Shown one piece after another: positions 8,172 to 64,000 of a stretch of 64,000 nt of DNA. This stretch comes from Bacteroidota bacterium (GTDB lineage: Bacteria > Bacteroidota > Bacteroidia > Chitinophagales > Chitinophagaceae), in NCBI GenBank assembly GCA_013286835.1, contig JABDEZ010000001.1:2916-66915 (forward strand). The letters run 5' to 3'. The first letter of the stretch is position 1, and each line of letters starts with the position of its first letter. The notes under the pieces were generated by a model. The model saw only the letters and a program-made list of their open reading frames with translations, did no database searches and was not told the DNA's origin. The translations under genes and the position numbers were made by a program.

Positions 8172-8212
8172 TAGAGGAATAACTGAGGTATTTTATATGT
8201 AATCTTTTGATT

Positions 8213-8250
8213 AAAAAAGCAATGTAATCAGCTATTACATTGCTTTTTTA
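8213..8250 (+). terminator. rho-independent terminator after the glucan synthase gene
   Basis: The stem gcaatgtaat (8219-8228) pairs with attacattgc (8234-8243) across the loop cagct, followed by tttttta. Confidence 0.75.
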
Positions 8251-37300: not shown

Positions 37301-38525
37301 TGCCGGAGCATGCTATTCCGGTAATAGTGGGTGTGATAGCAACATGTAAGGTGTTTGCTGTTGTAGTCACGGCACCGCATGTGCCGGTAACCACGCATTG
37401 GTAAGTATATCCATTCATGGCAGCCGTGGCTCCTGTTATGGATAGTGTATTGCTGGTTGTGCCACTATATGGGGCTGATGCAGGAACATTAGTATAGGCT
37501 CCCCCGGTGCTGTATTGCCATTGGTAGGTAAGTCCAAGGCCTATTGCATTGACAAAGAACGAGGTGTTATTCCCAACCCATATGTTTTTGTCGTATGATT
37601 GGTTAATCAATGTTGTGGAAGGGTTTACAATTATTGTATCTGTTTTGGCTGTACCACTTACCGACCCGGCAACCGGTGTAACTGTAATGATAGCTGTTAT
37701 TGGTGCGGTGGTAGTATTGGTAGCTGTAAATGAAATATTGCCAGAGCCGCTTGCCGCTAACCCAATGGCTGTGTTATTGTTTGTCCAGTTATAAACTGTA
37801 CCTGATGCGGGGGACCCGGAAAATGTTATCTGCGCTATAGGGGCATTATTACATACGGTTTGGCTGGTGGGCGATTCGGTGACGGTGGGATTGCTTACCG
37901 ATACGGCTGTACTTCCGTTAAACACTAAGCTTTTTACATACACATTTCTGCTGTTGGAATTTCCTCCTGACCCTGCGTATATGAACATCCTTATTTTCAT
38001 GGTGTGGCCACTACCACATGAAATAGATGTAAAAGTTATTGCTGGAGAGATAGTTGTTGTGCCACCACTGTTTATGCCTAACGCAGAACCAAAAGGAGTG
38101 AAGGTTGTGCCACCATCAAGCGCATATGAGAAGCTGATCATCGATTGATTACTACTTCCGCTTGTTTTTATTATTGCGGAATAAGAGGATAAGGTGAGAT
38201 CATAACCAGATGTGGGCGAAACTGGAAAATCCAGGTAATAACCACCTGCCTGATCTGCTGCTGTTGGCCAGGTTACTGTGCTTTGACATTCATAGCCGCT
38301 TGAACTGTAGTTGCCAGATGAAAATTCGGTGCCTGTAGTCATCGTTCCCACACTTATTGTACTCGCCCCCGCACCTCCTGCAGCGCCGTTCCCATTACTC
38401 GTCAATGCCCAAGTGGCGGTTATTGCTCCCTGTCCGTTGACATGTATAGCGCCGAACAAGAGTAAAATAGATATGGTGATGAACTTCAGTTTTGATAAGG
38501 GTGGAGTTTGTAATTTTTTGTTCAT
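31344..38525 (-). CDS. giant secreted surface protein: N-terminal domain, 6-bladed NHL propeller, 12 PKD-like repeats, 8 Ig-like repeats, T9SS C-terminal sorting domain
   Basis: 2393-aa ORF with a signal peptide (ISILLLFGAIHVNG/Q). It has six GNL[YF]V.D..N.R[IV]QKF blades. Twelve repeats have the pattern C..(N)..I.F....Y.W.NN.T.IGLAASG...F.A.N.G..P..A.ITV.P.ANGC.G. Eight repeats have the pattern Y.WQ.NG......Y.A...G.Y.V.V.N..GC. The terminal 75 aa (nt 31347-31571), KLYPNPA...LLKVYDKNNTTIKIEKLVKTGW, are T9SS CTD-like. Confidence 0.85.
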   Translation of the reverse strand: MNKKLQTPPLSKLKFITISILLLFGAIHVNGQGAITATWALTSNGNGAAGGAGASTISVGTMTTGTEFSSGNYSSSGYECQSTVTWPTAADQAGGYYLDFPVSPTSGYDLTLSSYSAIIKTSGSSNQSMISFSYALDGGTTFTPFGSALGINSGGTTTISPAITFTSISCGSGHTMKIRMFIYAGSGGNSNSRNVYVKSLVFNGSTAVSVSNPTVTESPTSQTVCNNAPIAQITFSGSPASGTVYNWTNNNTAIGLAASGSGNISFTATNTTTAPITAIITVTPVAGSVSGTAKTDTIIVNPSTTLINQSYDKNIWVGNNTSFFVNAIGLGLTYQWQYSTGGAYTNVPASAPYSGTTSNTLSITGATAAMNGYTYQCVVTGTCGAVTTTANTLHVAITPTITGIACSGSTLTLNSTFNPVEIIWSLNGTAVQTSTNSYSTSAITVAGTGGSGLGATQLYLPRFTFTDVSGNLYVSDQSNQRILKYAPGSTTGVTIAGTGVAGSGATQLYNPAGICVDGMGNLYVADAANNRIQKFAPGSTTGVTVAGTGSAGSGATELSFPQTAVVDAAGNLYVADQNNNRVQKFSWGSTTGVTVAGTGGSGAGATQLSNPFDLFIDNAGNLFVADASNSRVQKFAPGSTTGVTVAGTGGNGSGATQLNFPVGVFVDGLGNLYVSDQFNNRIQKFAPGSTTGVTVASPTQVTHPAGMFIDAAGNLFVVDQSNNRVQEFTNTISTTLAPSAAGTYTAVVITKDSTVTSAASFVVNPTPVVTISTTSQPVCANGTTIPINFTSSIINTNYAWTNNNTSISLGATGTTNINSFTALNPTSAPILDTITVVPTANGCTGTVQIATITVNPIPTVTVNPATQTICNNNPITAITFTPTVAGTTYAWANNTTSIGLAANGTLPIATFTALNTGTTADTATITVTPTANGCPGTAMPAQIIVKPTPAVTISPAPQLLCVGSTTQPISFTGPVTGTAYNWVNNNTSINLGASGATNINAFTTANTGSTPVTATITVTPVANGCTGANQSTTITVNPAPGITLTPTSQTICNTAAVIPINFASTITNTSYNWTNNNTSTGLAATGTTSIGSFPAVNTGIVPISSVITVIPTAGGCIGPTQYDTITVNPSPTVTASPPVQPVCNGNMSQQITFTSTIGVTTFLWTNNNTATNLAASGTNTIQPFMGTNTGNSPITSIVTVNPISGSCMGTPYTLTITVNPTPTVVVSQPSQPVCNGMPTLPISFTSNVTNTLFNWVNNQPSINLAASGTNNPIAAFNAVNTSNVPIISTITVSPVANGCTGLSQNAVITVNPTPNVTATPTKQAVCNGSAASAIVFTSNVSNANIAWTNNTTATGLAASGTGNTYTFTGTNTGNAPVTSIISVTPTANGCSGTVQTDTITVNPIPTVTATPSNQIVCNNTATQTILFTSNVSGAAFAWTNSLLSAGLAASSTSSSIPAFTASNSGSVPATAIITVTPTANGCTGNAKLDTILINPTPFANAINPQVLCNGGTVNPIPFGGSLVSGTAYSWTNSAPSIGLAASGTTNINTFTGTNTGSTPVIATIAVIPIANGCSGAVQTATITVNPTPNAIVTPASQPVCNGAPIGAITITGGVNNTTYSWTNNRAIGLAASGSGNIASVNAINNGTVPILDTLSVIPIANGCPGAKVIATITANPTPIIVSAPVSQSVCNATTAAITFNSAVSGTTYTWGNNTTTIGLNSAGNNNISFIATNTNPVPVSAFISVTPTANGCAGVTQVDTITVRPTPLASIIAAANPLFCPTDSVRIIANTGAGLTYQWQFNNSNIPSAIMDTFFANPAGNYNAVVTNIYNCPTTSNTVVVTHLPAPAALITPAGSTNLCIGDSVLLNTNVSQGVTYTWKLNGVFISNAHSTSYTARLAGAYTVYESDGTCNATTPVLNVTVNPYPPAVISSGGPAYFCPGSSVTLTADSGTIANYAYQYSLNGAVLAGNTQTYTAMLVGNYSVKVTNTAGCSNTSSLFPVSTLPAPSALVTYSGNPAICIGDSIVFNANPGSGYSFQWQQNGTPIPGATAITYTATTAGNYAVKVTALNGCSTTNTAVAVTLTPGPTATATAAGPTTVCEPGNVLLNAATGNNYTYQWQQNGTEITGAIAAAYTANASGNYSVKVSNGSCAISSLTIPVAVNLLPVDSMVVFGPKVICTGGSLLMRGALNPSYLYQWQLDSNNINGATAAYYSATVGGYYDVKITTAAGCSITTAPVGVATAATPTPVITATGNQLCALGYTTYEWFLNGVPILGASGACINPLEGGGYTVAVTNVAGCAATSPVYDLNTGVNNIVAEQVKLYPNPAIQFVNVSSPQKVNVSLSSMDGKQLIYVEDAKTIDISSLPNAIYLLKVYDKNNTTIKIEKLVKTGW
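33231..36239 (-). repeat. 11 tandem PKD-like repeats, period about 91 aa (273 bp), within the giant CDS
   Basis: The W(T/A/V/G)NN motif recurs at aa 800, 891, 982, 1073, 1164, 1255, 1347, 1438, 1530, 1621 and 1710. One more copy lies at aa 246, upstream of the NHL region. Confidence 0.8.
36339..37199 (-). repeat. six NHL-type beta-propeller blades (about 47 aa each) within the giant CDS
   Basis: aa 443-729. The repeated unit is APGSTTGVTVAGTG..GSGATQL..P.G...D..GNLYVADQ.NNR[IV]QKF. Confidence 0.8.
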
Positions 38526-40834: not shown

Positions 40835-43408
40835 ATGCAAAACACCGGCGACAATGCCTTAATGCAATTCAATAATTTTGTCGGCATAAAGTTCCAGTTA
40901 TACAATAGCCTTTTTACCTCCTTACCATTTCACAAAATAGAGAAGACAGGTATACTGCTGTCACTCTTCCAGATGGATTGTGAAGAAAGCTTTGAGCAAA
41001 GTAAGAACCCTATAGAGATAGTGGATGGTTTTGTGCAACAGAATACGGCATATACAACGGAGCAAGAGAAAATAGAATTACTGTTTCGTTTTACACAATA
41101 TGCTGAAAGACAAGTAGTGCTGTTTGATGCCCTTGAAGATGCTGCTTTTAGCAAGATACATGATATGAATGGCCAAGGCTCACTAAAGCAATTGGAACTG
41201 GAAGTGAATAGCCGGCATAAGGAAGAGGAGCTGAAACAAAAACTTGAAGATTATGCAATAAGGCTCGTGTTGACAGCACACCCAACGCAGTTTTATCCTG
41301 ATGAAGTATTGGGTATCATAACCGACCTGTCTAACGCGGTAAAGGACGATAATGTAGGCGACGTGAACATGTACCTGCAACAATTGGGAAAGACGCCATT
41401 TTTAAAAAAGCAGAAGCCTACACCATACGATGAAGCAGTGAGCCTGATGTGGTATATGGAGCATGTATTCTACACATCGGCTGGCAATATTATGAGCACG
41501 CTTAAAAGCAGGTTCCCAAATGCTGTGCACGATGACAATCCGGTTATCAATATGGGCTTCTGGCCTGGGGGCGACCGTGATGGCAATCCTTTCGTGACCA
41601 CCGAAACTACGCTGCACGTTGCGGCAACGCTAAATAACCGCATTATTAAATGCTACCATAAAGATCTTAAGAAACTGCGCCATAGGCTTACTTTTAAAGG
41701 GGTACTTACATTGGTGACCAACCTGGAAGAGAAGCTCTTTAATGCATTGTATTATAAGCCGGAAGTGCCGATTACAACTCATGAAATCATAGATGCACTG
41801 GAGGAAATAAAGCAGACCATTATAAATGACCATGATAGTTTGTTTCTTTCGCAGGTAGATGAGATGCTGATGAAGGTGCGCATTTTCGGGCTGTACTTTG
41901 CATCGCTGGATATACGGCAGAATAGCACGGTGCATACAAAGACCCTGAAAGCAATAGATGACCAGAAAAAAATATTGCCCGCAGGTTATTACGAACTGGA
42001 TGAAAAAGGAAAAATAGATGTACTGCTGCAGTTGCACCAACAGCCTGATATAGTACTGGAAGACTGGCTGCTGCAAGACACGCTAGACGTAATGAAGGCC
42101 ATTAAGATCATACAGCGCAATAATGGAGAAAAAGGATGCCATAGGTATATTATAAGCCACAACACTTGTGCGCTTAATGTGATAGAAGTGTACGCTTTGT
42201 TGCAATTAGTAAATGATGGAAGCGAACTCGCTGTGGATATTGTGCCTCTGTTTGAAATGATAGAAGACCTACAAGAAGCAGGCGCCAGCATGAAAGTGCT
42301 TTACGAAAATGAAACATACCGCGCCCACCTGAAAAAGAGGGGCGACATACAGCATGTGATGCTTGGCTTTAGCGATGGCACCAAGGATGGTGGCTACCTG
42401 ATGGCCAACTGGAGCATATACAAGGCTAAGGAGAACCTGACAACTGTGGCTCGGGAGCATGGCATAGAGGTAGTCTTCTTTGATGGCCGTGGTGGACCAC
42501 CTGCAAGAGGTGGTGGTAAGACCCACCAATTCTATGCATCGCTGGGGAGTAATATTGCTGGTAAGGAAATACAGATCACTATACAGGGGCAGACCATAAG
42601 CAGCAGCTTTGGTAATGTAGATGCTGCGGGTTTTAATATGGAAAAACTGCTGCATGCCGGCATATACAATAGTGTACTTGCAGAGCAGAAGCCAACACTT
42701 ACTCACGACCAGGAGGCCTTGATGCTGGAACTTTCAGAAGAGGGCTATAAAGCCTATGTGGCATTGAAGAATGAACCTGAGTTTGTGCCTTATCTTGAAA
42801 ATGTGAGCCCGCTGCGCTTTTATGCAGATGCCAATATAGGGAGCAGACCAGCCAAGCGTAATGAAGGTGAGAAACTGAATCTTGATGACTTGCGTGCCAT
42901 CCCGTTTGTGGGGGCATGGAGCCAGCTAAAACAAAACCTGACGGGCTATTATGGTGTAGGAAGAGCACTGCAGAAAATGGAGGCAGAAGGAAGGTGGCAG
43001 GAAGTAAAAGACCTTTATGAAAACTCGTTGCTGTTCAAAACCATGATAGATAACTGCGAGATGGCCATGATGAAAAGCTTCTTCCCGCTTACTGCTCACC
43101 TGGCTACACACCCGCAATATGGGGCTATATGGAACATGATATATGACGAGTATGAATTGTCTAAAACCATGACCATGAAGTTAGGTGGAACTACTGAGCT
43201 GATGGAAAAGTATCCTGTTGATCGCCTTTCTGTGAGTATGCGCGAAAGGATAGTATTGCCACTTACAACTATACAGCAATATGCACTGAGCCGGGTACGT
43301 GAAATGGAAGAAAATAAACAAACCGATGTGGAGCTGCGGAAAACACTGGAGAAGCTGATCATGCGCTGCTCGTTCGGGATAATTAATGCGGGTAGAAATT
43401 CGGCTTAA
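40835..43408 (+). CDS. ppc: phosphoenolpyruvate carboxylase
   Basis: 857 aa with VLTAHPTQF, GFWPGGDRDGNPFVT, MLGFSDGTKDGG and FFDGRGGPPARGGG, which are the PEPC signatures. Confidence 0.9.
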   Translation: MQNTGDNALMQFNNFVGIKFQLYNSLFTSLPFHKIEKTGILLSLFQMDCEESFEQSKNPIEIVDGFVQQNTAYTTEQEKIELLFRFTQYAERQVVLFDALEDAAFSKIHDMNGQGSLKQLELEVNSRHKEEELKQKLEDYAIRLVLTAHPTQFYPDEVLGIITDLSNAVKDDNVGDVNMYLQQLGKTPFLKKQKPTPYDEAVSLMWYMEHVFYTSAGNIMSTLKSRFPNAVHDDNPVINMGFWPGGDRDGNPFVTTETTLHVAATLNNRIIKCYHKDLKKLRHRLTFKGVLTLVTNLEEKLFNALYYKPEVPITTHEIIDALEEIKQTIINDHDSLFLSQVDEMLMKVRIFGLYFASLDIRQNSTVHTKTLKAIDDQKKILPAGYYELDEKGKIDVLLQLHQQPDIVLEDWLLQDTLDVMKAIKIIQRNNGEKGCHRYIISHNTCALNVIEVYALLQLVNDGSELAVDIVPLFEMIEDLQEAGASMKVLYENETYRAHLKKRGDIQHVMLGFSDGTKDGGYLMANWSIYKAKENLTTVAREHGIEVVFFDGRGGPPARGGGKTHQFYASLGSNIAGKEIQITIQGQTISSSFGNVDAAGFNMEKLLHAGIYNSVLAEQKPTLTHDQEALMLELSEEGYKAYVALKNEPEFVPYLENVSPLRFYADANIGSRPAKRNEGEKLNLDDLRAIPFVGAWSQLKQNLTGYYGVGRALQKMEAEGRWQEVKDLYENSLLFKTMIDNCEMAMMKSFFPLTAHLATHPQYGAIWNMIYDEYELSKTMTMKLGGTTELMEKYPVDRLSVSMRERIVLPLTTIQQYALSRVREMEENKQTDVELRKTLEKLIMRCSFGIINAGRNSA

Positions 43409-43452
43409 AATAGATAGAGCGGTGATCATCGCTCTATCTATTTGTTCTTTTG
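43409..43452. terminator. bidirectional hairpin terminator between convergent ppc and the DUF1684 gene
   Basis: aatagatagagcg (43409-43421) pairs with cgctctatctatt (43430-43442), a 13-bp stem, followed by tgttctttt. Confidence 0.7.
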
Positions 43453-46690: not shown

Positions 46691-48796
46691 TTATTTTACT
46701 TCGCTTCCTGCATCTGTATGCTCTGCCGGTGATACAAATATCAGCTTGCCGGCAGCATTTTCAGCCATTAGTATCATGCCCTGGCTTTCTATACCACGCA
46801 TCTTCCTGGGTGCAAGGTTGGCAACTACTGTAACCTGCTTGCCCACTATATCTTCTGGTGCAAAGTGCATGGCTATACCACTTACTATGGTACGGTGTTC
46901 TGTACCCATATCTACGGTTAGCTTTAGCAACTTGTCTGCTTTCTCCACTTTCTCGGCAGTTAATATGGTACCTGCGCGCAGGTCTATCTTCGCAAAATCA
47001 TCAAATGTAATGGTGTCTTTGGCTGGTGCAGCAGGTTTGGTTTCTGCCAGTGCCGCTACTTCTTTTTCTGGTGTTGGTTCCACGTCTTGTGTTGGTTTTA
47101 TAGCCCTGCCTTTTAATTTTTCTACTTGCAATGCTATCTCAGCATCTTCTATTTTCCTGAACAGCAGCTCAGGGGCGCGTAACGGATAGCCTGCATTTAA
47201 CAGGTTCATTCTGCCGGCGTTTTCCCAATCGAGCATGCGCTCTACTACCTTCATCATATAGATCATCTTCTGAGCCGTAAATGGTAAGAAGGGATTGATG
47301 AGTATAGACAGGTTAGCAGTAAGCTGAAGGCATATGTGCAGGCAGTTATCTATCTGCATTTGATTCTCTACCTGTAGCTCCGGCGTTTTAGCCAGGCTCC
47401 AGGGTGCGCAGTCCTGCAGGTATTTATTCCCTTTGCGGGCCAGGTCTATTACTTCAAATAGCCCATCGCGGAACTTGTAGTTCTCGATGTTGCTTTCCAC
47501 CAATGTTTTGGCATTGCCTATGGCTGCTATTAGTTCTTTGTCCCTGTCGGTAAGCAATTCGTTGTGCAGGCGGGGCACCTTGCCCTTACATAGCTTGTGC
47601 ATGAGCACAAATGCCCTGTTCACAAAATTGCCGAATATAGATACCAATTCACCATTCACCCTATCCTGGAAATCCTTCCAGGTAAAGTCGTTGTCCTTGG
47701 TTTCTGGTGCATTGGCGCAAAGCACATAACGCAATAGGTCTTGCTGCTCAGGAAAATCTTCCAGGTACTCGTGCACCCACACCGCCCAGTTGCGGCTAGT
47801 GGATACTTTTTCACCTTCTATATTCAGGAACTCGTTGGCAGGCACATTATCGGGTAGCACAAAACCACCATGGGCTTTGAGCATGGCTGGGAATATGATG
47901 CAATGGAATACAATATTATCCTTACCTATAAAGTGTACAAGTTTGGTATCTTCTTTGCACCAGTAGTCGGCCCACTGGTTGGTCAGTTCTTTGGTAGCAC
48001 TGATGTAGCCAATGGGGGCATCGAACCATACATACAGCACCTTGCCTTTTGCATCGGGCAGGGGTACGGGCACGCCCCAGTTGCTATCGCGCGTCATAGC
48101 GCGGGGTTGCAGGCCGCTATCCAGCCAGCTTTTGCACTGACCATATACGTTAGGTTTCCATTCGTTCTTCTTGCCTTCAACAATCCATTCCTTCAGCCAG
48201 TCCTCATATTTATTGAGCGGAAAGTACCAGTGCTTGGTTAGCTTTTTCACCAATTTTGAGTGGCTCAATGCGCTATGCGGATTGATCAGTATTTCGGGCG
48301 ACAGGGTAGAACCACACCGCTCGCACTGATCGCCATAGGCATTGGGATTGCCACAAACCGGGCAGGTACCTATTATATAACGATCGGCCAGGAACACATC
48401 GTGCTCCTCATCATAATATTGTTCACTTTCCTTTTCCTCAAATACACCATCGTTATATAGCTTGGAGAAGAACGCCTGCGATGTATCGCGATGTGTAACA
48501 GATGAGGTGCGGGAATATATATCGAAGGAGATGCCCATTTTGGCAAAGCTGTCCTTCATCATTTCGTGGTACTTGTCAACCACCTGCTGCGGGGTTATAC
48601 CCTCGCGCATGGCGCGTATGGTGATAGGCACACCGTGCTCATCGCTGCCACTAATAAACTTTACATCTCTTTTCTGCGCGCGCAGGTACCGTACATAAAT
48701 ATCTGCCGGCAGGTAGCCCCCGGCCAGGTGCCCGATGTGTATGGGGCCATTGGCGTAAGGCAGTGCTGACGTAATCAGGTATCTCTTAAAATCCAT
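46691..48796 (-). CDS. metG: methionine--tRNA ligase with C-terminal tRNA-binding domain
   Basis: 701 aa with the HIGH motif PIHIGHLAG, zinc knuckles CPVCG...CERCG and the KMSKS variant KVSTSRN. The C-terminal region is Trbp111/EMAP-like ([27 protein letters not shown]). Confidence 0.92.
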
Positions 48797-49245
48797 TCTA
48801 AATATTAATAAGGGTGCAAGATAATCATAAGTTAGTTAGGGGAGGCAAGGGGAACGCTTCCTAGTATTGGTGGAGCTGTCCGGTCCGGTTTTAAAAAGGA
48901 AAACCGGACACTTGGTGTGTGATGTCGGGCTGAAATGCTTTGTGGTAGCTTATATGTGAATCATTTAAACTGTCTGGTCTGTCCGGTATCGGACAGGGTG
49001 GCCGTCTTGAACACGATTACGGGATTGAAAGATTATAGGATAGTGTTACGTGCATCGAGACAAGAGCAAAAAAAATATATTCCGTATTCCTGCTGTTGGT
49101 TTACAGGTTTGTAATGGGTGCAAGGTAAGATGGGCGTGGATATTAGCCTGAACAAGATATGCACAGTTCCACGGAGTGTTGTGTTCCACAGGGGGAATGA
49201 AAAAGGGTGTGTTGGCATAATGCCTCCTTATCATTTACGTTACAA

Positions 49246-49322
49246 GTCCTTGTAGAGGGCTCCGCTTTGTAGCAAGATACCGTAAACGTTGTTGCACCCT
49301 GTAGGGGTGCCCCGCACAAAAT
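49246..49322 (-). repeat. REP-like composite module (diverged copy, inverted orientation) with three GTAG-loop hairpins
   Basis: The three hairpins are gtccTTGTAGagggc (49246-49260), gctTTGTAGcaa, and gcacccTGTAGgggtgc (49294-49310). They are in the same order as the module at 50276-50358. Confidence 0.7.
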
Positions 49323-49385
49323 ATATGGAGGTAACCATTTCCCAGCCTGTCAATAAATCATATATTGCTATCCAATTATTGCAAC

Positions 49386-49850
49386 ATGGCTAATAATTAT
49401 ACCCAACTATATATTCATTTTGTTTTTGCGGTACAGTATAGGGCGGCAATGCTCAATAGTGCCTGGGATGATAGGCTTCGGTTATATATTTCCGCTATTG
49501 TTCAAAACAATGGACATAAAATGTTGGCCATAAATAATATGCCTGATCACCTTCATTGCCTGGTAGGATTAAATCCCAGTCAATCTATTTCAGATCTTAT
49601 GAATGTGGTTAAGGGTGATTCTGCAGAGTGGATCAATAAAGAAAATTTGGTCTCTCATAAATTTCAATGGCAGAAGGGTTACGGAGCTTTCAGTCATTCA
49701 AAATCGCAGGTGAACACCGTTGTTCAGTATATTCATAACCAGCAGGAGCATCATCGTAAGGTGGTTTTTATTGAAGAATATAAAAAGATATTGACCGATT
49801 TTGGAATCGAATACGATGAACGTTATATTTTCACGTTACCTGCTGAATAA
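49386..49850 (+). CDS. IS200/Y1-type HUH transposase homolog, REP-associated tyrosine transposase (RAYT)-like
   Basis: 154 aa from ATG 49386 (the track lists TTG 49365). It has the HUH motif PDHLHCLVG, the Tyr motif FQWQKGYGAFSHS and C-terminal YIHNQQEHHRK, typical of COG1943-like proteins. It is a single gene flanked by palindromic repeat modules rather than IS ends. Confidence 0.75.
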   Translation: MANNYTQLYIHFVFAVQYRAAMLNSAWDDRLRLYISAIVQNNGHKMLAINNMPDHLHCLVGLNPSQSISDLMNVVKGDSAEWINKENLVSHKFQWQKGYGAFSHSKSQVNTVVQYIHNQQEHHRKVVFIEEYKKILTDFGIEYDERYIFTLPAE

Positions 49851-50205
49851 TTGGTGCGGGGCGGCCCTACAGGCCGCATGATACTCCTTGTTTGTTATTG
49901 CTACAAAGCTGGGCCCTCTACAAGGGCACTGTTATGTGGAAGTGTTTAGAGTGGGTGTTGTATTAACCCCACATTGCGAGTGTAATTGGTACGGGGGCGG
50001 CCCTACAGGCCGCATGATATTCCTTGTTTGTTATTGCTACAAAGCTGGGCCCTCTACAAGGGCACTGTTATGTGGAAGTGTTTGGAGTGGGTGTTGTATT
50101 AACCCCACATTGCCGAGTGTAATTGGTACGGGGGGGCACTACAGGCCGCATATTATAGTACGGCCTTGTATCCTACAAAGCGGTGCCCTCTACAAGGGCA
50201 TGACA
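49851..50205 (+). repeat. tandem 136-bp REP-like composite modules (2 full plus 1 diverged partial)
   Basis: Hairpin gcggccCTACAggccgc occurs at 49861-49877 and 49997-50013, with a degenerate copy at 50133-50149. Hairpin gccctCTACAagggc occurs at 49913-49927, 50049-50063 and 50185-50199. All spacings are exactly 136 bp. Confidence 0.85.
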
Positions 50206-50275
50206 TATTGATTCATTTCGGTTAGGGATCTACTGAAAATATCTGTCTATCTTAATTGTCTTTTGTTTGCGCTAA

Positions 50276-50358
50276 CAGTGCCCTTGTAGAGGGCCCAGCT
50301 TTGTAGCAATAACAAACAAGGAGTATCATGCGGCCTGTAGGGCCGCCCTGCACAAAAT
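50276..50358 (-). repeat. REP-like composite module, inverted copy
   Basis: 50276-50348 is the exact reverse complement of the core of unit 1 (gggcggccctacaggccgcatgatactccttgtttgttattgctacaaagctgggccctctacaagggcactg). Confidence 0.85.
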
Positions 50359-50417
50359 GATTACAATAATTAAGCTGATTTCGCTGAACGGCATTGTTGA
50401 AAATGGCGTTTGTTAAG

Positions 50418-51968
50418 TTACTTATGCTTCACCTGCTCTAAATAATTCCTCCTGATCACATCCTGTACAGGTGTGCGTTCGATCTTGCTTTCCAGCCAAG
50501 ATATAATATCGAGGTAGGTAAAAGCGCGGGTTTTTTTGTGCACTTCTTTTTGCTGGCGCAGGGTTGCGAGCAGGATGCGGAACTCATTTTCGAGCTGGCG
50601 GGGCGGTATGTGGAAGGCCCGTTTCAGGAAGTTGAATATTTCCTCTTCCACTACACTTAGGTTCTCCATCTTGCCCATAAGGCGGTAAACTGATTTAGAT
50701 AAATATTCCAACAGTTCATCGTTGCCCAGCTCGTAGTGGGCTATAAGGTGCAGCAGGCGGGCGTAGCATTGCAGGTCTATCCGCAAATCGGTTTTCCAGT
50801 TGATGATCTTTTGCAGGTAGTCGATGCAGGTTTCAGAGTCGCCGCTGCCAAAGTACAGGCTGGCTATTTTGTAGTAGAATATAAGTACCCGGTGGCTATC
50901 CATGTACAGGCTGTATTCCTGTAGTTGGCTCATGATACCCGGCACTATTTTAAGCCCCTGGGTAAACGTGCCCTGCATGAAATGCTTGTTGATGCGCGCT
51001 GTAGTGAGATACACAAAGCCCTGTATCAGGTTGTTCTCGTTGTTCTTTATGGAGTCTAGTTCGCAGAGATCTTCCAGTTTTTGTAGTGTTTCGTCGAGGC
51101 CACGGTGGTTGCTGAGGTAGAAGTGAGATTCCAGCAGGTTGTGCAACCCTTTTAGGTAGTGGGTGCTTTCCACTTCTATCATATGCGGAAAGCTATCGAA
51201 CAGGTTGACCCATTTTTGGGTGTAACGGTAGTACAGGAAAAAATCTTGCAGTATAAAGGCATACCAGCAATAGCTTTGGTAGAGGTACAGGTTCTCATAA
51301 AAGTCATCGTTGTGGGCCTTTTTTTGTGAAAGGGCCTGGGCGAAAAAGTTTTTAATTTCTTCCTCATCTTTCAGGTTACGGGCATGGCCATTTTGTATGT
51401 ACCTGCTGTATAGCTGTAAGGAAAGGTTGGACAAGTGGCTGATGGTAGACAGGCGTTCATTGACGTCGTCAGACTCTGCAGCGAGTTGGTCGGCGCGATT
51501 GTGGATGCTGCGGGTAATGTGGAGACCCTCTATTTTCTTTTCAAAAAAAAGTGCTTGTTGGAGGTAACTAAGCTGGCCGTAATTTTTTGCGAACCCCTTC
51601 AGGGTATCGAGTATTTTAAGACTTTGCAGGTATAATCCTTTGTTGTATAGTATACGTGCATGGTCCATTTGCTCGTGCAGCTGTATATCTATATTGCCTT
51701 CATCTTTTATGAGCCTGAGGCTAAGCAGCACCTGGCGGTAGAGCCGGGTCTTTATATTATATAGCTGTTGCTTTGGGAGGTCGCTGAATTTTTTCAGCAA
51801 TAGGGTCTCGTCATACTCATTCATTTTTTCCAAAACATCAAATAACGCAACTGTGCGCAATTCTGTTTTGCTGGAATTGCGGGTGGCATATAGTTTAAAA
51901 TTCTTCTTTTCAGACTTGGTTAGGGACTTTATCAGTTGAAAAAGGCTGTCGGATGTTTTGTTGAGCAT
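50418..51968 (-). CDS. hypothetical all-helical (TPR-like?) protein, function unknown
   Basis: The 516-aa ORF has protein-like composition and repeated amphipathic helical segments. I recognise no catalytic motif. Confidence 0.6.
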   Translation of the reverse strand: MLNKTSDSLFQLIKSLTKSEKKNFKLYATRNSSKTELRTVALFDVLEKMNEYDETLLLKKFSDLPKQQLYNIKTRLYRQVLLSLRLIKDEGNIDIQLHEQMDHARILYNKGLYLQSLKILDTLKGFAKNYGQLSYLQQALFFEKKIEGLHITRSIHNRADQLAAESDDVNERLSTISHLSNLSLQLYSRYIQNGHARNLKDEEEIKNFFAQALSQKKAHNDDFYENLYLYQSYCWYAFILQDFFLYYRYTQKWVNLFDSFPHMIEVESTHYLKGLHNLLESHFYLSNHRGLDETLQKLEDLCELDSIKNNENNLIQGFVYLTTARINKHFMQGTFTQGLKIVPGIMSQLQEYSLYMDSHRVLIFYYKIASLYFGSGDSETCIDYLQKIINWKTDLRIDLQCYARLLHLIAHYELGNDELLEYLSKSVYRLMGKMENLSVVEEEIFNFLKRAFHIPPRQLENEFRILLATLRQQKEVHKKTRAFTYLDIISWLESKIERTPVQDVIRRNYLEQVKHK

Positions 51969-58002: not shown

Positions 58003-58024
58003 CCACAATTTAAATACACAAAGC

Positions 58025-58061
58025 AAAACGCCCCAGGAGCAATCCTGGGGCGTTTTGTTTT
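58025..58061 (+). terminator. rho-independent terminator after the aminotransferase gene
   Basis: aaaacgccccagga / gcaa / tcctggggcgtttt is a 14-bp stem followed by gtttt. Confidence 0.85.
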
Positions 58062-58344
58062 GGGGGTATATCTGATGGATTTTAATGACTATTTGTAATT
58101 GCAATGCTATAGCGCCGATTTTCCGTCGACTATTTTATTAGCTACACTGCCTCCTCTAAGGCCCCATAAAAAGATGGTCATAAAGTTGTTCTATTCAATG
58201 CGGCATATGCTTTGCCGAAGATATTTTCCACAATAAAGGAAGTTGCAGTAGCAATGATTGACCCATAGCTTTCATTTTATATTTCAATTTGAATATAACT
58301 GCCTTTCAGTGTTTTATGGATAAATTGAATATTTATGTATTAAA

Positions 58345-58606: not shown

Positions 58607-61600
58607 ATGCGCAGATTGCTATCTCTTTTTATTGTCTTATTAGTTGCGGCTGCTCCCCTGCGAGCCTGCAACATTAATATAAGCGCCAATGTAACGTCGA
58701 TCTGCGCAGGAAGCCAGATCACCTTCACGGGAGTCATTACAAATGCTTCAAATGCAACCACATTCCAATGGGAAAAGAATGGCGTTGCAATGACTGGAAC
58801 AGGAAATAGTGGTGGGCTTTCCTCTCCTGGCAATGGCACTTTTACATACACCGCCGGTGGATTCAGCAATGGAGATGTTATTACCTGTTACATAACTGAA
58901 CCAGCTTCGAGTTTCACTACAACGAGTTCCGGAATTACTGTATCAGTAAATAACCAGGCGCCCATCACTTCCAGTTTTAACGGAACCTCTATCTCCTCTG
59001 GAAATGTTATCTGGTTTAATTCTGTAGTTAGTGTGACTGGTTCTCAGAGTTACCCAATGACCATATATTATACGAACCAAACTATATCAAGTTCCGGATT
59101 TTCAATTTCAGCACCGGATGCAGAACTAATTCTGGACAATACATATTCTATAGCTACCACTACGTATAACGGAACAATGTGGGTTACAACTGCCCCTCCC
59201 AATCAATCAGGCAATTACTTTTTAGCAGGTTACGGTTATACCGCGCCATCTACAATATCTGGTTCTCCAAACATTACATGGAATGGTACTTTTCTTTGTT
59301 CACAAGCCGGTGTTACTTTGAACTGGCAATGGGCAGCGGCAGTTTATACATCTTTTAATTCTAATCTCGCGAATCTGGGTGTGAAAGCCTCTTATTGTTC
59401 TTCTTGTTCTGTCTATTCAAATTCTGATCATGCAGGTACACCTGAAAGCTATAAAGCGAGTGTGATAGGCGGAGCACGTGGTGGTGGTGGTTCTAACTAT
59501 ACCGGAAGTTATTCTGGTACTGGTTCTGTAACCACTTGCGGAGCGGTTACACCTTCGGTTATTATTTCCGGTACTTCTTCTATCTGTTCAGGAGCATCGG
59601 TGACTTTTACTGCTACCCCAACCAATGGCGGTTCTTCTCCGGCTTATCAATGGAAAAAGAACGGTAATAATGTAGGCACTAATAGTGCTACTTATACCGA
59701 TGCATCTTTGGCTAATAGTGACGCTATCACATGTGTTTTGACCAGCAGCCTTACTTCTGCAGCCCCTACTACTGCAACCAGCAATACTATTACAGAAACG
59801 GTGAATAGTAATGTTACCCCTTCGGTATCAATAGCAGCAAGTCCAGGTTCATCAATATGCTCAGGTACATCCGTAACATTTACGGCTACCCCAACAAACG
59901 GCGGTACCCCCAGCTATCAATGGAAAAAGAACGGTACTAATGTTGGTACCAACAGTACTACTTATACGGATGCAGCACTTAATAATAATGATGTTATCAC
60001 TTGCGTGATGACCAGTACTGCAGCATGTGCAACAACAAGTACAGCAACCAGCAATGGAGTAACAATGACGGTTACCCCAACTGTAACACCTTCTGTATCC
60101 ATTTCTGGTAATTCGTCAATATGTGCTGGTACATCCGTAACATTTACGGCTACCCCTACAAATGGTGGTACACCAAGCTACCAATGGAAAAAGAATGGCA
60201 CTACCGTAGGCACTAATAGCGCTACATATACAGATGCGGGCTTAACAAATGGCAATACGATCACTTGTGTGATGACAAGCACTGCATCATGTGCCAGTAC
60301 AACTACAGCGACAAGTAATACCATTACTGAAGTTGTAACCAGCAATGTTACGCCATCTGTATCAATAGCCGCTAGTCCTGGGTCATCAATATGTTCAGGC
60401 ACATCAGTAACGTTTACCGCTACGCCAACGAATGGTGGTACACCAAGCTATCAATGGAAGAAGAACGGTACTAATGTTGGAACGAATAGCACTACTTATA
60501 CAGACGCTTCTTTGAACAATAATGATGCGATCACTTGCGTAATGACCAGTACAGCGTCATGTGCAACTACTACAACAGCAATAAGTAATACGATCACTGA
60601 GACTGTAACAAATAATGTCACTCCATCAGTATCCATTTCGAGCAATTCATCTATTTGTGCAGGCACATCGGTAACTTTTACTGCTACACCAACCAACGGA
60701 GGTACTCCAAGCTACCAGTGGAAAAAGAATGGTACAAATGTAGGTACGAACAGTACCACATATACCGATGCCGCTTTAAATAATAATGATACGATCACTT
60801 GTGTGATGACCAGTACTGCAGCTTGTGCAACTACTACAACCGCTACAAGTAACACGATCACGGAGACTGTAACAAATAATGTTACGCCATCTGTATCAAT
60901 AGCCGCTAGTCCTGGATCATCAATATGTTCTGGTACCTCAGTAACGTTTACAGCTACACCAACCAACGGAGGTACACCAAGCTACCAATGGAAAAAGAAC
61001 GGCACAAATGTAGGTACGAACAGCGCTACCTATACCGATGCCGCTTTAAATAATAATGATGCGATCACTTGTGTAATGACGAGCACCGCAAACTGTGTTA
61101 CAACAACAACTGCAACAAGCGGTACTATTACAATGACTGTAACAAATAATGTTACCCCTTCCATATCTATTTCAGGTAATTCATCTATATGTGCAGGTAC
61201 TTCAGTGACTTTTACAGCTACGCCAACCAACGGAGGTACACCAAGCTATCAGTGGAAGAAGAATGGTAGCAATGTAGGAACGAACAGCGCTACTTATACA
61301 GATGCATCTTTAAATAACAATGATGCGATCACTTGTATTATGACTAGTACAGCGTCATGTGCAACTACTACAACAGCAACAAGTAATACGATCACTGAGA
61401 CCGTAACAAATAATGCCACTCCATCAGTATCAATAGCAGCTAACCCCGGTTCTGCAATTTGCGCTGGCACATCAGTAACGTTTACTGCTACCCCAACAAA
61501 CGGTGGTACTCCAAGCTACCAGTGGAAGAAGAACGGCAGCAATGCAGGTACAAACAGCGCTACTTATACAGATGCGAGCCTTAATAATAACGATGTTATT

Positions 61601-64000
61601 ACTTGTGTGATGACCAGCACGGCAACTTGTGCAAGCACTACAACTGCTACGAGCAACGCTGTAACGATGACCATAACGAATAATGTTACTCCTTCTGTTT
61701 CAATTTCAGGTAATTCATCTATATGTGCAGGTGCTTCAGTAACCTTTACTGCTACCCCAACCAACGGCGGTACGCCAAGCTATCAGTGGAAAAAGAACGG
61801 TAGTAATGTAGGCGCTAATGCTGCAACTTATACAGATGCGGGCTTAACAAATGGCAATACGATCACTTGTGTGATAACAAGCACTGCATCATGTGCCAGT
61901 ACAACTACAGCGACAAGTAATACTATTACTGAGACCGTAACAAACAATGTTACCCCATCTGTATCAATAGCTGCAAACCCCGGTTCTGCAATTTGCTCTG
62001 GCACTTCGGTAACATTTACTGCTACACCTACCAACGGCGGTACACCAAGCTACCAATGGAAAAAGAACGGTACTAACGTAGGTACTAATAGTGCTACCTA
62101 CACAGATGTTTCTTTAAACAATAATGATGCGATTATGTGTGTAATGACCAGCACAGCTGCGTGCGCTACAACAACCACAGCTACCAGCAGTACCATTACT
62201 ATGAATATAACTAATGCAGTTACTCCATCAGTATCAATAACGGCTAACCCGGGTAACAATATCTGCTCAGGTTCACCAGTAACATTTACAGCTACCCCAA
62301 CCAACGGCGGTACGCCAAGCTACCAATGGAAGAAGAACGGCACTAATGTAGGTACGAACAGTAATACATATACAGACAATGGTCTTAATAACAATGATGT
62401 GATCACTTGTGTGATGACCAGCACTGCATCGTGTGCCAGCACTACAACCGTTACAAGCAATGCGATCACCATGAATGTGAGCAACACTACTGCTACACAG
62501 CCAGGCAACTTCACGGTATCATCTGGTACAACTTATGATGGCCAGACAGGCGTTGTTTATACTGTGCCTAATATACCAGGCACTACCTATACCTGGAGCT
62601 ACAGTGGTACAGGCGCAACGATAAATGGAACAGGCAACAGTGTTACAGTAGATTTTAGTACTGCAGCTACAAGCGGCACACTAAGTGTAACAGCTACAAC
62701 AGGATCATGCAGCAGCCCATCGGCAGCCCGTACAATACCTGTAACAGTAAAACCCTACCTGACATGGACATGTGGTACAAACAACGACTGGAATACAGCA
62801 AGCAACTGGGATGGTGGTTTTGTACCATATAGCACAATAAGTGTGCTGGTACCTGCAAACACATCTTGCCAGCCCAATATATGCAGTGGTTCAGCTAATG
62901 TGAATAACATGACCGTTAATAATGGCGCTACGGTAAACATATGCTGCCCTAACAGCCTTACAGTAAATGGAGATATGACCATCAATGGTTCAATACTGGG
63001 ATGTGGTGAGGTTATTGTACCAGGCAGTGTATGCCACGTAATATATGGTAACGGGCGTATAGACAATTTTGAACTGAACAACAGTTGTGGTGGCATCATC
63101 AATGCAGGTGATACGCTGCACATAGGGGATACCTATACACCTACTCTTGGTGTAATGACTGTAAATGGTGAGCTGGAACTTTTGTCAGACTCAACAGTAA
63201 CAGCATCGATACTTACTCATCCTGGTGTATGTAATACATACATAGTGGGTGATGTGATCTGCGATAAATTTATACATGGCGGCCGCAGGGCGTTCCGTTT
63301 CCTGGGTCATCCATTCAGCACGTCAATACCGCTAAGCCAACTGGAATACACAGTGGATATAACAGGCCAGGGTGGTGCTGCTAATGGATTTACAACAACA
63401 GTTACCGACAATCCTTCAGCCTTCTGGTACAATACACTTACCGGTAACGGATCTACAGTAGATGACAGCACCGGCTGGATACCATTTACAAGTACCAATG
63501 GTGTTGGTGCTAATGCATGGAATGCATTTGAAGGGATCAGGTTGTTTATGCGTGGCAGCAAAGGTCAGGGACTGGGATGTGGTGTTTGCGTGCCAGATGC
63601 AATAACCATAAAAATGCACAGCACTATTAATGAGTGCGACCAGACAGTAACACTTGGTGTGAACAATAATGTTGGTTTCAATTTTATAGCCAATCCTTAT
63701 CCATCATCAATAGACCTGAGCAAGATAACAACAGGCAGCTCTATAGGTGCTAACTTCAATGTGTGGGATCCTAATCAGGGCCTGGTAGGCGCGTATGTGG
63801 AACAGCCATTTAACATATCATACATCTTACCAGCTTACAGTGCTTTCTTTACCACTTGTAACAGTAATACAGGCAACACCCTTACATTCCACGAAACAGA
63901 TAAAACCGTTGCAGCGCCTACAGGCAATCTGTTCAAGACAACAGGCATGGGTAATGACATAGTACAACTGCGCATACTAAGCAACAACGACTCATTATCG
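58607..64000 (+). CDS. giant secreted repeat (Ig-like) surface protein, 3' end beyond the window; not present in the supplied ORF track
   Basis: From ATG 58607 I translated 58607-60460 (start through the fourth repeat) and 62480-64000 by eye and found no in-frame stop. The window holds exactly 1798 codons of this frame. The six repeat units between 60460 and 62480 were checked through the regular in-frame spacing of the QWKKNG motif rather than codon by codon. The signal peptide is MRRLLSLFIVLLVAAAPLRA. Eleven tandem units fit VTPSVSI..(N/S)..SIC.GTSVTFTATPTNGGTPSYQWKKNGTNVGTNS.TYTD..LNNND.ITCVMTSTA.CATTTTATSN.IT. The C-terminal part continues past 64000. Confidence 0.85.
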   Translation, partial: MRRLLSLFIVLLVAAAPLRACNINISANVTSICAGSQITFTGVITNASNATTFQWEKNGVAMTGTGNSGGLSSPGNGTFTYTAGGFSNGDVITCYITEPASSFTTTSSGITVSVNNQAPITSSFNGTSISSGNVIWFNSVVSVTGSQSYPMTIYYTNQTISSSGFSISAPDAELILDNTYSIATTTYNGTMWVTTAPPNQSGNYFLAGYGYTAPSTISGSPNITWNGTFLCSQAGVTLNWQWAAAVYTSFNSNLANLGVKASYCSSCSVYSNSDHAGTPESYKASVIGGARGGGGSNYTGSYSGTGSVTTCGAVTPSVIISGTSSICSGASVTFTATPTNGGSSPAYQWKKNGNNVGTNSATYTDASLANSDAITCVLTSSLTSAAPTTATSNTITETVNSNVTPSVSIAASPGSSICSGTSVTFTATPTNGGTPSYQWKKNGTNVGTNSTTYTDAALNNNDVITCVMTSTAACATTSTATSNGVTMTVTPTVTPSVSISGNSSICAGTSVTFTATPTNGGTPSYQWKKNGTTVGTNSATYTDAGLTNGNTITCVMTSTASCASTTTATSNTITEVVTSNVTPSVSIAASPGSSICSGTSVTFTATPTNGGTPSYQWKKNGTNVGTNSTTYTDASLNNNDAITCVMTSTASCATTTTAISNTITETVTNNVTPSVSISSNSSICAGTSVTFTATPTNGGTPSYQWKKNGTNVGTNSTTYTDAALNNNDTITCVMTSTAACATTTTATSNTITETVTNNVTPSVSIAASPGSSICSGTSVTFTATPTNGGTPSYQWKKNGTNVGTNSATYTDAALNNNDAITCVMTSTANCVTTTTATSGTITMTVTNNVTPSISISGNSSICAGTSVTFTATPTNGGTPSYQWKKNGSNVGTNSATYTDASLNNNDAITCIMTSTASCATTTTATSNTITETVTNNATPSVSIAANPGSAICAGTSVTFTATPTNGGTPSYQWKKNGSNAGTNSATYTDASLNNNDVITCVMTSTATCASTTTATSNAVTMTITNNVTPSVSISGNSSICAGASVTFTATPTNGGTPSYQWKKNGSNVGANAATYTDAGLTNGNTITCVITSTASCASTTTATSNTITETVTNNVTPSVSIAANPGSAICSGTSVTFTATPTNGGTPSYQWKKNGTNVGTNSATYTDVSLNNNDAIMCVMTSTAACATTTTATSSTITMNITNAVTPSVSITANPGNNICSGSPVTFTATPTNGGTPSYQWKKNGTNVGTNSNTYTDNGLNNNDVITCVMTSTASCASTTTVTSNAITMNVSNTTATQPGNFTVSSGTTYDGQTGVVYTVPNIPGTTYTWSYSGTGATINGTGNSVTVDFSTAATSGTLSVTATTGSCSSPSAARTIPVTVKPYLTWTCGTNNDWNTASNWDGGFVPYSTISVLVPANTSCQPNICSGSANVNNMTVNNGATVNICCPNSLTVNGDMTINGSILGCGEVIVPGSVCHVIYGNGRIDNFELNNSCGGIINAGDTLHIGDTYTPTLGVMTVNGELELLSDSTVTASILTHPGVCNTYIVGDVICDKFIHGGRRAFRFLGHPFSTSIPLSQLEYTVDITGQGGAANGFTTTVTDNPSAFWYNTLTGNGSTVDDSTGWIPFTSTNGVGANAWNAFEGIRLFMRGSKGQGLGCGVCVPDAITIKMHSTINECDQTVTLGVNNNVGFNFIANPYPSSIDLSKITTGSSIGANFNVWDPNQGLVGAYVEQPFNISYILPAYSAFFTTCNSNTGNTLTFHETDKTVAAPTGNLFKTTGMGNDIVQLRILSNNDSLS
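59546..62485 (+). repeat. 11 tandem coding repeats of 264/270 bp arranged as a 534-bp two-unit super-repeat
   Basis: The QW(K/E)KNG codon block starts at 59648, 59918, 60182, 60452, 60716, 60986, 61250, 61520, 61784, 62054 and 62324. The spacings are 270, 264, 270, 264, 270, 264, 270, 264, 270, 270. Confidence 0.9.

Follow-up and report, generated by a model that had tools for sequence, protein, structure and literature searches.

The REP/RAYT system is the standard example of a transposase that was domesticated together with its non-autonomous repeats, and to our knowledge REP/RAYT systems have so far been tied to class-2 Y1 proteins, mostly from Proteobacteria. We have analysed a locus in the genome of a Bacteroidota bacterium (family Chitinophagaceae; assembly GCA_013286835.1, contig JABDEZ010000001.1, positions 2,916 to 66,915, a stretch of 64,000 nt that we call the window), in which a gene predicted to encode a 154-aa HUH/Y1 single-strand DNA endonuclease lies between inverted copies of a composite palindromic module. 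Sequence comparison, together with analogy to described systems, suggests that the locus, at 49228-50362 of the window, is probably a REPtron-like pair: a resident, single-copy, vertically inherited IS200-like gene and its cognate DNA module.

The E. coli REPtron (4ER8) and the REPIN-RAYT systems of Pseudomonas share with this locus a single-copy Y1 gene that is placed between inverted palindromic repeats and inherited vertically, as well as REPIN-like inverted doublets, BIME-like tandem clusters and gene-less intergenic copies. They differ from it in enzyme class (class 2, while the window protein is predicted to be of class 1, IS200-like) and in the position of the tetranucleotide, which in the window lies inside an invariant 9-mer, 2-4 nt from one of two hairpins (hairpin B), and not at a 5' foot. 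The repeat itself differs as well: the window module is composite, with two hairpins and a core in ~95 nt, and its copies apparently number a handful, not hundreds. The insertion sequences (IS) IS200, IS608 and ISDra2 have the closest enzymes by hidden Markov model (HMM) scores, sequence and fold; another common feature is that their small hairpins are subterminal and have a short conserved stretch close to the foot, comparable to the guide and cleavage sites of IS608. The ends at the window locus, however, are inverted and not co-oriented, the gene occupies one syntenic locus without multiple identical copies, and there is no tnpB.

TnpA-Y1 proteins of class 3, from Planctomycetes and Acidobacteria, are both IS-like and REPtron-like, have a Y----Q motif related to that of class 1, and have at their sides unusual secondary structures that occur also elsewhere in the genome (PMC6006769). 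They have, however, another core profile, a CnGA foot and up to ~600 copies (Solibacter), whereas the window family has a CTACAAAGC core and a low observed copy number.

Subclass 1.2 of TnpA-Y1 is described in the survey of Quentin, Siguier, Chandler & Fichant 2018 (PMC6006769) as near IS200 TnpA, without IS properties, low in copy number, present in Bacteroidetes and Cyanobacteria only, and 'REP: no'; its proteins of ~148 aa have the motifs DH[IV]H, WQ and Y---Q--HH and a specific conserved C-terminal domain. The window family is alike in its motifs (DH[IVL]H, WQ, Y---Q--HH), length (~150 aa) and conserved C-terminal tail, and alike in low copy number, non-IS behaviour and occurrence in Bacteroidetes; as judged by the published motifs, and not by the authors' tree, the predicted protein matches subclass 1.2. 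What sets it apart is a conserved two-hairpin module with an invariant 9-mer at the window and 10 other family loci, where the survey tabulates no REPs. These modules, found at 11/11 loci, contradict the published REP-less description of the subclass, not membership in it. The automatic REP search of the survey accepted only stems with >=7 bp that had GTAG or GTGG at 0-2 nt on their 5' side (PMC6006769). Hairpins of 5-7 bp fail this criterion, which would explain why no REPs were tabulated for the subclass and why motif-based REP finders miss the module. The supplement of the survey does not mention the genera involved here. If our reading is right, a conserved cognate module belongs to a class-1, IS200-like lineage which the only systematic survey that we found calls non-IS and REP-less.

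Class, motifs and inheritance of the Y1 gene

The gene extends on the plus strand from the ATG at 49386 to the stop codon at 49850; the start was placed at this ATG because homologues show the same start. A preliminary description of the locus, made from the sequence alone, had called the product a RAYT-type protein, and this label did not hold. The protein matches Pfam Y1_Tnp (E=4.5e-31) and reaches 82 bits with the NCBIfam IS200/IS605 equivalog NF033573 (cut-off 55), but only 41.1 bits with the REP-associated tyrosine transposase NF047646 (cut-off 80). The PDB sequence search gave ISDra2 as the best match (1.8e-9), with other IS200-family TnpA and IS608 (3.6e-7) among the matches; E. coli TnpA-REP (4ER8) gave no match at E<=1. 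A fold search with the AlphaFold model (mean pLDDT 72.7) ranked 29 IS200-family chains at ~1e-7 ahead of 4ER8 (rank 30, E=7.6e-4). Judged by its motifs, HMM scores and modelled fold, the protein is IS200-like and not a canonical RAYT. Identical gene copies with IS ends, which the preliminary description had named together with an IS200-like protein as speaking against a REPtron, were not found.

The invariant residues in a 32-member alignment are D54, H55 and H57 of the HUH motif, W95, Y115, Q119, H122 and H123. The HLH motif recognized earlier, D54-H55-L-H57, is thereby confirmed, with L, I, V or M at HUH position 3 among family members; W95-Q96 forms the WQ motif, and F128, E131, Y132, L136 and F149 are conserved towards the C terminus. 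The tyrosine motif had been placed at QKGYGAFS, but the tyrosine in it, Y99, is replaced by F in 2/32 members, and for this reason we do not consider it catalytic. The predicted catalytic tyrosine is Y115 in YIHNQQEHH, since it is invariant and fits the Y---Q--HH signature of class 1 (that of class 2 is Y---NP; PMC6006769).

Members of the family are spread widely over Bacteroidota; a 50%-clustered library yielded 116 representatives at E<=1e-30. P0121, P0122, P0124, P0130 and ~20 others are ~290-aa proteins in which this Y1 domain occurs twice in tandem (two matched stretches each, 29-36% identity); by analogy such natural fusions would agree with an enzyme that works as a dimer, like IS200/IS608 TnpA. 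For comparison of gene neighbourhoods and flanking sequences we used 11 independent family loci, the window and ten fetched ones (L003, L004, L016, L017, L018, L020, L024, L025, L027 and L029), whose proteins are 69-86% identical to the window protein. Named homologues come from Mucilaginibacter and Chitinophagaceae; L016 is Mucilaginibacter sp. PAMC 26640 (CP014773) and L017 is Chitinophagaceae IBVUCB1.

Estimates of dN/dS are 0.03-0.08, with dS saturated between species. The protein at L004 is 86% identical to that of the window, while the flanking genes are 72-80% identical at the nucleotide level; the two loci have the right-hand neighbour in common, and the left neighbour at L004 is the orthologue of the window PEP carboxylase. 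Common neighbours were found also at L016, L020 and L025 (fmt and an aminotransferase) and at L017 and L024 (an HMGL-like gene and panB), which makes three synteny groups, each kept across species. One protein occurs on 24 contigs from many samples with the same two flanking genes every time, and most 90% clusters occur on one contig. No plasmid homologues of >=60% identity were found. On this comparative evidence the gene appears to be single-copy, vertically inherited and under strong purifying selection. Synteny, selection, the lack of plasmid copies and the inverted ends speak together against an insertion sequence that is active or has decayed recently.

The module and its association with the gene

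The exact 9-mer CTACAAAGC is present within ~400 nt of the gene in 11/11 independent loci and occurs nowhere else in them; its usual sites are at -81 to -122 on the minus strand and at +42 to +67 on the plus strand relative to the gene. A covariance model of the module trained on the window lineage only (R1) picks up modules beside the gene in all the other lineages, with E from 1e-9 to 0.03, and gives a single marginal match (E=0.23) away from gene-adjacent or known module sites. The two modules that flank the gene have their hairpin-A ends turned inward, towards the gene, and the same inverted arrangement was observed in L003, L004, L018, L027 and L029. A Bernardetia homologue, whose protein is 50% identical, has upstream an inverted doublet of a diverged module, with CTACAAATATTGC and GTTGC-TCT-GCAAC hairpins.

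In the window lineage the module of ~95 nt, taken in the direction of the right-hand copies, consists of ATTTTGTGCGGGG, hairpin A, 21-23 nt, the core CTACAAAGC, 3 nt, hairpin B and ~15 nt that often finish in ACGTAA. Hairpin A has a 6-bp stem and a CTACA loop (GCGGCC-CTACA-GGCCGC or GCACCC-CTACA-GGGTGC), and hairpin B has a stem of 5-6 bp with the same loop (GCCCT-CTACA-AGGGC). Between lineages the hairpin sequences change and the positions stay: 17 and 19 distinct stem sequences were counted at the two hairpin positions, and 89% and 86% of modules have a stem of >=5 bp there, as compared with 9.5% and 7.7% after shuffling.

The same conservation is seen in an alignment of 29 sequences. Hairpin A has standard pairs in 83% of cells (61.5% in shuffled alignments), and its covariation score, 0.455 versus 0.143 shuffled, was reached by 0/500 shuffles and far exceeds that of slid controls (<=0.126). 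All the changes in hairpin A are double, with no G-U intermediates, and from this lack of wobble pairs we argue that selection acts at the DNA level rather than on RNA. The z-scores for the thermodynamic stability of single modules are modest (-0.6 to -3.8), and the case for structure therefore rests on covariation. A third mini-hairpin, TTTG-CTA-CAAA, can be drawn around the core (63% paired vs 36-55% in slid controls); its invariant 3' half precludes covariation.

In the window lineage the tetranucleotide GTAG is part of the hairpin loops and also of the invariant GCTTTGTAG, the complement of the core, which is located on the other side of hairpin B at a distance of 2-4 nt. A guide tetranucleotide GTAG or GTGG 0-2 nt 5' of a hairpin foot was not found in this lineage; GGTAG at hairpin feet is present in some others (L016, L018). 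Pairing in what we take to be the manner of IS608, with AAAG beside hairpin B and TTACGT distal to it on the other strand, was considered as a lead only. Both strands of 48800-50500 gave no Rfam family at E<=1, and no description of the module or of its core was found in the literature, where the 10-mer matched only unrelated primer sequences.

In the window the gene was said to be bracketed by oppositely oriented palindromic modules, and this arrangement was borne out, with the left module on the minus strand, the tandem array on the plus strand and the far copy on the minus strand. The left module (49228-49326; R1 86.9 bits, E=5e-22) has its hairpin-A end towards the gene; its repeat arms were found at 49243-49324, in good agreement with the 49246-49322 given before. 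It contains hairpin B' at 49246-49260 (GTCCT-TGTAG-AGGGC, with one T.G pair), the core complement GCTTTGTAG at 49264-49272, hairpin A' at 49294-49310 (GCACCC-TGTAG-GGGTGC) and a CCCCGCACAAAAT tail at 49310-49322.

Right module 1 (49845-49945, plus strand; 101.8 bits) overlaps the stop codon of the gene and has hairpin A at 49861-49877, the core at 49901-49909 and hairpin B at 49913-49927; both hairpins appear in the DNA fold. It is followed by a ~50-nt spacer (49946-49979, plus strand) with a small hairpin of its own, GTGGG...CCCAC, and by right module 2 (49980-50081, plus strand; 94.9 bits), with hairpin A at 49997-50013, the core at 50037-50045 and hairpin B at 50049-50063. A second copy of the spacer (~50082-50116) leads to right module 3 (50117-50217, plus strand; 83.9 bits; core 50173-50181, hairpin B 50184-50200), which is the older and most diverged one of the array and has a degenerate hairpin A. 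The tandem array at 49848-50200 has a period of 136 and 2.6 copies, as had been described, with units 1 and 2 98% identical over 120 nt; the claimed exactness of the period was not upheld, since Tandem Repeats Finder gives 1-3% indels. The best description of the array is that of three modules with two copies of the ~50-nt spacer between them.

The far inverted module (50262-50362, minus strand; 102.8 bits; inverted-repeat arms 50273-50356) has hairpin B' at 50280-50294, the core complement at 50298-50306 and hairpin A' at 50330-50346. It is indeed a perfect reverse complement of unit 1, over 76 nt (49859-49934 and 50273-50348) and not over 73. Module probes of 25 nt and 22 nt have 5 and 4 matches in the window, all at the locus (shuffles expect 0.00), and all eight hairpins in the 64 kb with a CTACA or TGTAG loop and a stem of >=5 bp are situated there too. 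A 107-aa open reading frame (ORF) at 49888-50211 (plus strand) falls wholly inside the tandem array and is a repeat artefact, not a gene.

The locus lies in a housekeeping context, flanked on the left by metG (46691-48796, minus strand) and on the right by an ORF of 516 aa (50418-51968, minus strand) for which the Pfam search gave no match; leuA-like, gpsA and PEP carboxylase genes are further neighbours. The statement that there are no IS200/IS605 ends and no tnpB also stands: the flanking modules are mutually reverse-complementary, and tnpB was not found among the neighbours. One gene, inverted flanking modules, no one-strand IS ends and no tnpB support a REPtron-like architecture.

The Mucilaginibacter locus L016 contains a more elaborate array. 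It stretches over ~900 bp downstream of the gene (2963-3870), with about five units of 107 bp followed by about four units of 52 bp that keep the core and hairpin B alone, and it is closed by an inverted module. On the upstream side of this gene, which abuts the preceding ORF, there is no module.

Array dynamics, dispersal and competing explanations

The arrays differ between closely related strains. At the gene locus the number of 136-bp units is 2.6 in the window, 4.6 in L001, at least 3.6 in L002 and different again in L011, with flanks 96-97.5% identical. The same holds for arrays at sites without the gene: L007 has 2 and L010 has 3 units of 101 bp, with 99% identity of the flanks, and L012 has 3 and L013 has 2 units of 307 bp, with 97.8% identity. 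The far inverted module is identical to module 1 in the window strain alone. In a three-strain alignment the far modules of L001 and L011 differ from that of the window at 11 clustered positions within ~45 nt, while the sequences on both sides, 55 and 60 nt, are identical in all three strains; the 11-difference cluster is a recent conversion patch.

A scan of metagenomes found nine loci, two of which (L008 and L009; GC 0.51, tetranucleotide r<0) are chance hits; the counts are lower bounds because the scan missed L001, which holds exact matches. The gene-less loci L007/L010, L012/L013 and L014 are all intergenic. They stem from the sample series that also yielded near-identical contigs with the gene, and their tetranucleotide correlation with the window (0.92-0.96) is at the level of chunks of the window compared with the rest of it. 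In L012/L013 each unit consists of two modules in inverted orientation whose A ends face each other, like the gene locus minus the gene, and L014 has a single module. The flanks of the other loci, ~48 kb in all, yielded no extra module in the R1 scan. The possibility, raised in the preliminary description, that the module would be found at other sites was therefore borne out by gene-less copies in contigs of the same metagenome series; its suggestion of genome-wide dispersal stands as regards at least three gene-less intergenic loci elsewhere but not as regards a high copy number. On present evidence the module family appears to be dispersed but low-copy.

By analogy with IS608/ISDra2 TnpA and with E. 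coli TnpA-REP, we propose that the protein, probably as a dimer, would bind the hairpins on single-stranded DNA and would cut and rejoin DNA at or beside the invariant 9-mer by means of Y115 and the HUH metal site. A layout with an invariant sequence 2-4 nt from one hairpin and ~20 nt from another is what suggests an HUH nick site. The gene itself would not be mobilized because the flanking modules are on opposite strands. Cleavage and joining between module copies would add or remove array units, and the same reaction may also generate sequence patches and inverted copies and occasionally place a module in a further intergenic site. In this scheme it is the binding, the position of cleavage and the driving of rearrangements by the enzyme, as opposed to host recombination, that we infer from the analogy.

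If the proposal is correct, the invariant CTACAAAGC between covarying hairpins is a concrete candidate substrate for an uncharacterised family of HUH enzymes, and the strain-level dynamics (unit changes and the conversion patch) offer a system for studying how transposases turn into resident enzymes of genome maintenance or genome editing. Short sequence-specific HUH enzymes that act on single-stranded DNA serve as DNA-protein conjugation tags, and a new HUH specificity would be of practical interest for this use.

Several observations weigh against pairing a resident enzyme with a dispersed module. A filter-free R1 scan of the other ~63 kb of the window gave no copy (next best 12.9 bits, E=0.16). 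The scan with CTACAAAGCNNNGCCCTCTACA of the 185,579 species representatives of GTDB, among which the source species is not included, gave two hits, one of them real (a Flavipsychrobacter metagenome-assembled genome with the module at a contig start); the second match, GC-rich, was taken as chance. The Bernardetia doublet, when searched against plasmids, gave self matches only and has no near-identical copy on its 601-kb replicon, although diverged copies would escape this search at that database size. The gene-less loci are only probably of the same genome, as judged by composition and sample series. Modules may be one-sided, downstream only in Mucilaginibacter and upstream only in L017 and L024. 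That the modules keep a fixed distance from both the start and the stop codon would suit a regulatory role in cis. Finally, slippage at replication and homologous recombination can yield changes in unit number and sequence patches with no need for a dedicated enzyme.

Possible, though on balance doubtful, is a more specific account, according to which REPtron-style domestication took place within the IS200-like class 1, separately from the class-2 RAYTs, the module is an abutted right-end/left-end junction and the mobile unit is the segment from core to core. Hairpin A, ~20 nt, the cleavage core and hairpin B would then be the equivalent of the right-end/left-end junction of IS200/IS605, and cargo-less mini-elements of 101-307 bp would be moved and amplified in trans by a resident, immobile TnpA. 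If this were true, the family would be a living intermediate on the path from IS to REP/RAYT, with a 9-nt nick site conserved across Bacteroidota.

We find it unlikely that the locus is a decaying or immobilized element of the IS200 family, in which the modules would be its ends and the gene-less copies MITE-like (PATE-like) elements or solo ends, with no host role and the system on the way out. Such an element would account for the IS200/IS605 equivalog score above the cut-off, the IS608/ISDra2 fold, the subterminal hairpins at a constant spacing from the gene, which are similar to IS ends, and the genomic contexts that differ between genera. Inverted ends, however, are unusable as a left/right pair by the strand-specific IS200/IS605 mechanism, and a gene held at a single locus, syntenic across species in three separate groups, with neither tnpB nor near-identical extra copies, does not behave as an element in decay. 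The dN/dS values, with saturated dS, point to long-term purifying selection in place, and ~70% amino-acid identity is kept across families of Bacteroidota.

The view that the modules are cis-regulatory or structural (an operator, terminator, attenuator or protein-binding palindromes) and not cleavage substrates, with arrays and dispersed copies made by ordinary slippage and recombination, seems to us improbable. Besides the fixed distances, it can draw on the hairpin B with a T-rich stretch that was flagged as weakly terminator-like, on the role in expression control that is known for IS200 end hairpins (PMC4513863), and on the lack of G-U pairs, which is equally compatible with single-stranded DNA hairpins and with a double-stranded palindrome to which a dimer binds. 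Promoter and terminator scans, however, were not above shuffles (terminator-like 3 vs 2.0 +/- 1.6), and no Rfam match was obtained. Gene-less copies in both orientations in unrelated intergenic regions, gene-less inverted doublets (L012, L020) and long arrays (~900 bp in L016) would stay unexplained, and the invariant 9-mer beside a hairpin has the layout of an HUH nick site.

A canonical REP/RAYT system, with a RAYT-clade enzyme that maintains a high-copy genome-wide REP/BIME family, is very improbable: in its favour are the palindromes in inverted orientation around one gene, the BIME-like arrays and inverted doublets and the intergenic copies without the gene, and JGI labels several homologues 'REP element-mobilizing transposase RayT', but the REP profile stays at about half its cut-off while the IS200 one is exceeded, TnpA-REP is absent by sequence and 30th by fold, the tyrosine motif is that of class 1 and not of class 2, stems of >=7 bp with GTAG at the 5' foot are lacking, and the measured module density is low.

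Other repeats and reading frames in the window

A repeat of ~125 nt, which we call element X, was found at 48877-48999 of the window, at 237-357 of L012 and at 930-1050 of L013. It has two strong hairpins, GTCCGGTTTT-N7-AAAACCGGAC and CTGTCCG-GTAT-CGGACAG (DNA fold z=-4.4), and no Rfam match. The copy at the L012/L013 locus is 76% identical, and at both sites a minus-strand module is found ~180-250 nt away; the element could form a second family of repeats or belong, together with the modules, to a larger composite.

The region 59570-62436 contains a 270-bp tandem repeat (10.7 copies, 74% matches) that is apparently coding, as a repeated protein domain, and a similar unit occurs in L013 at 2785-2846. 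Two giant ORFs are present, one of 2713 aa at 30-8171 (plus strand) and another of 2393 aa at 31344-38525 (minus strand), the latter with diverged internal repeats at ~33500-37800. Near-perfect palindromes of 34-44 nt, 86-95% self-complementary, were observed at 8212-8250, 12643-12676, 43408-43443 and 58019-58062, none of them related to the modules in sequence; the first, third and fourth are situated just past ORF ends and are probably terminators.

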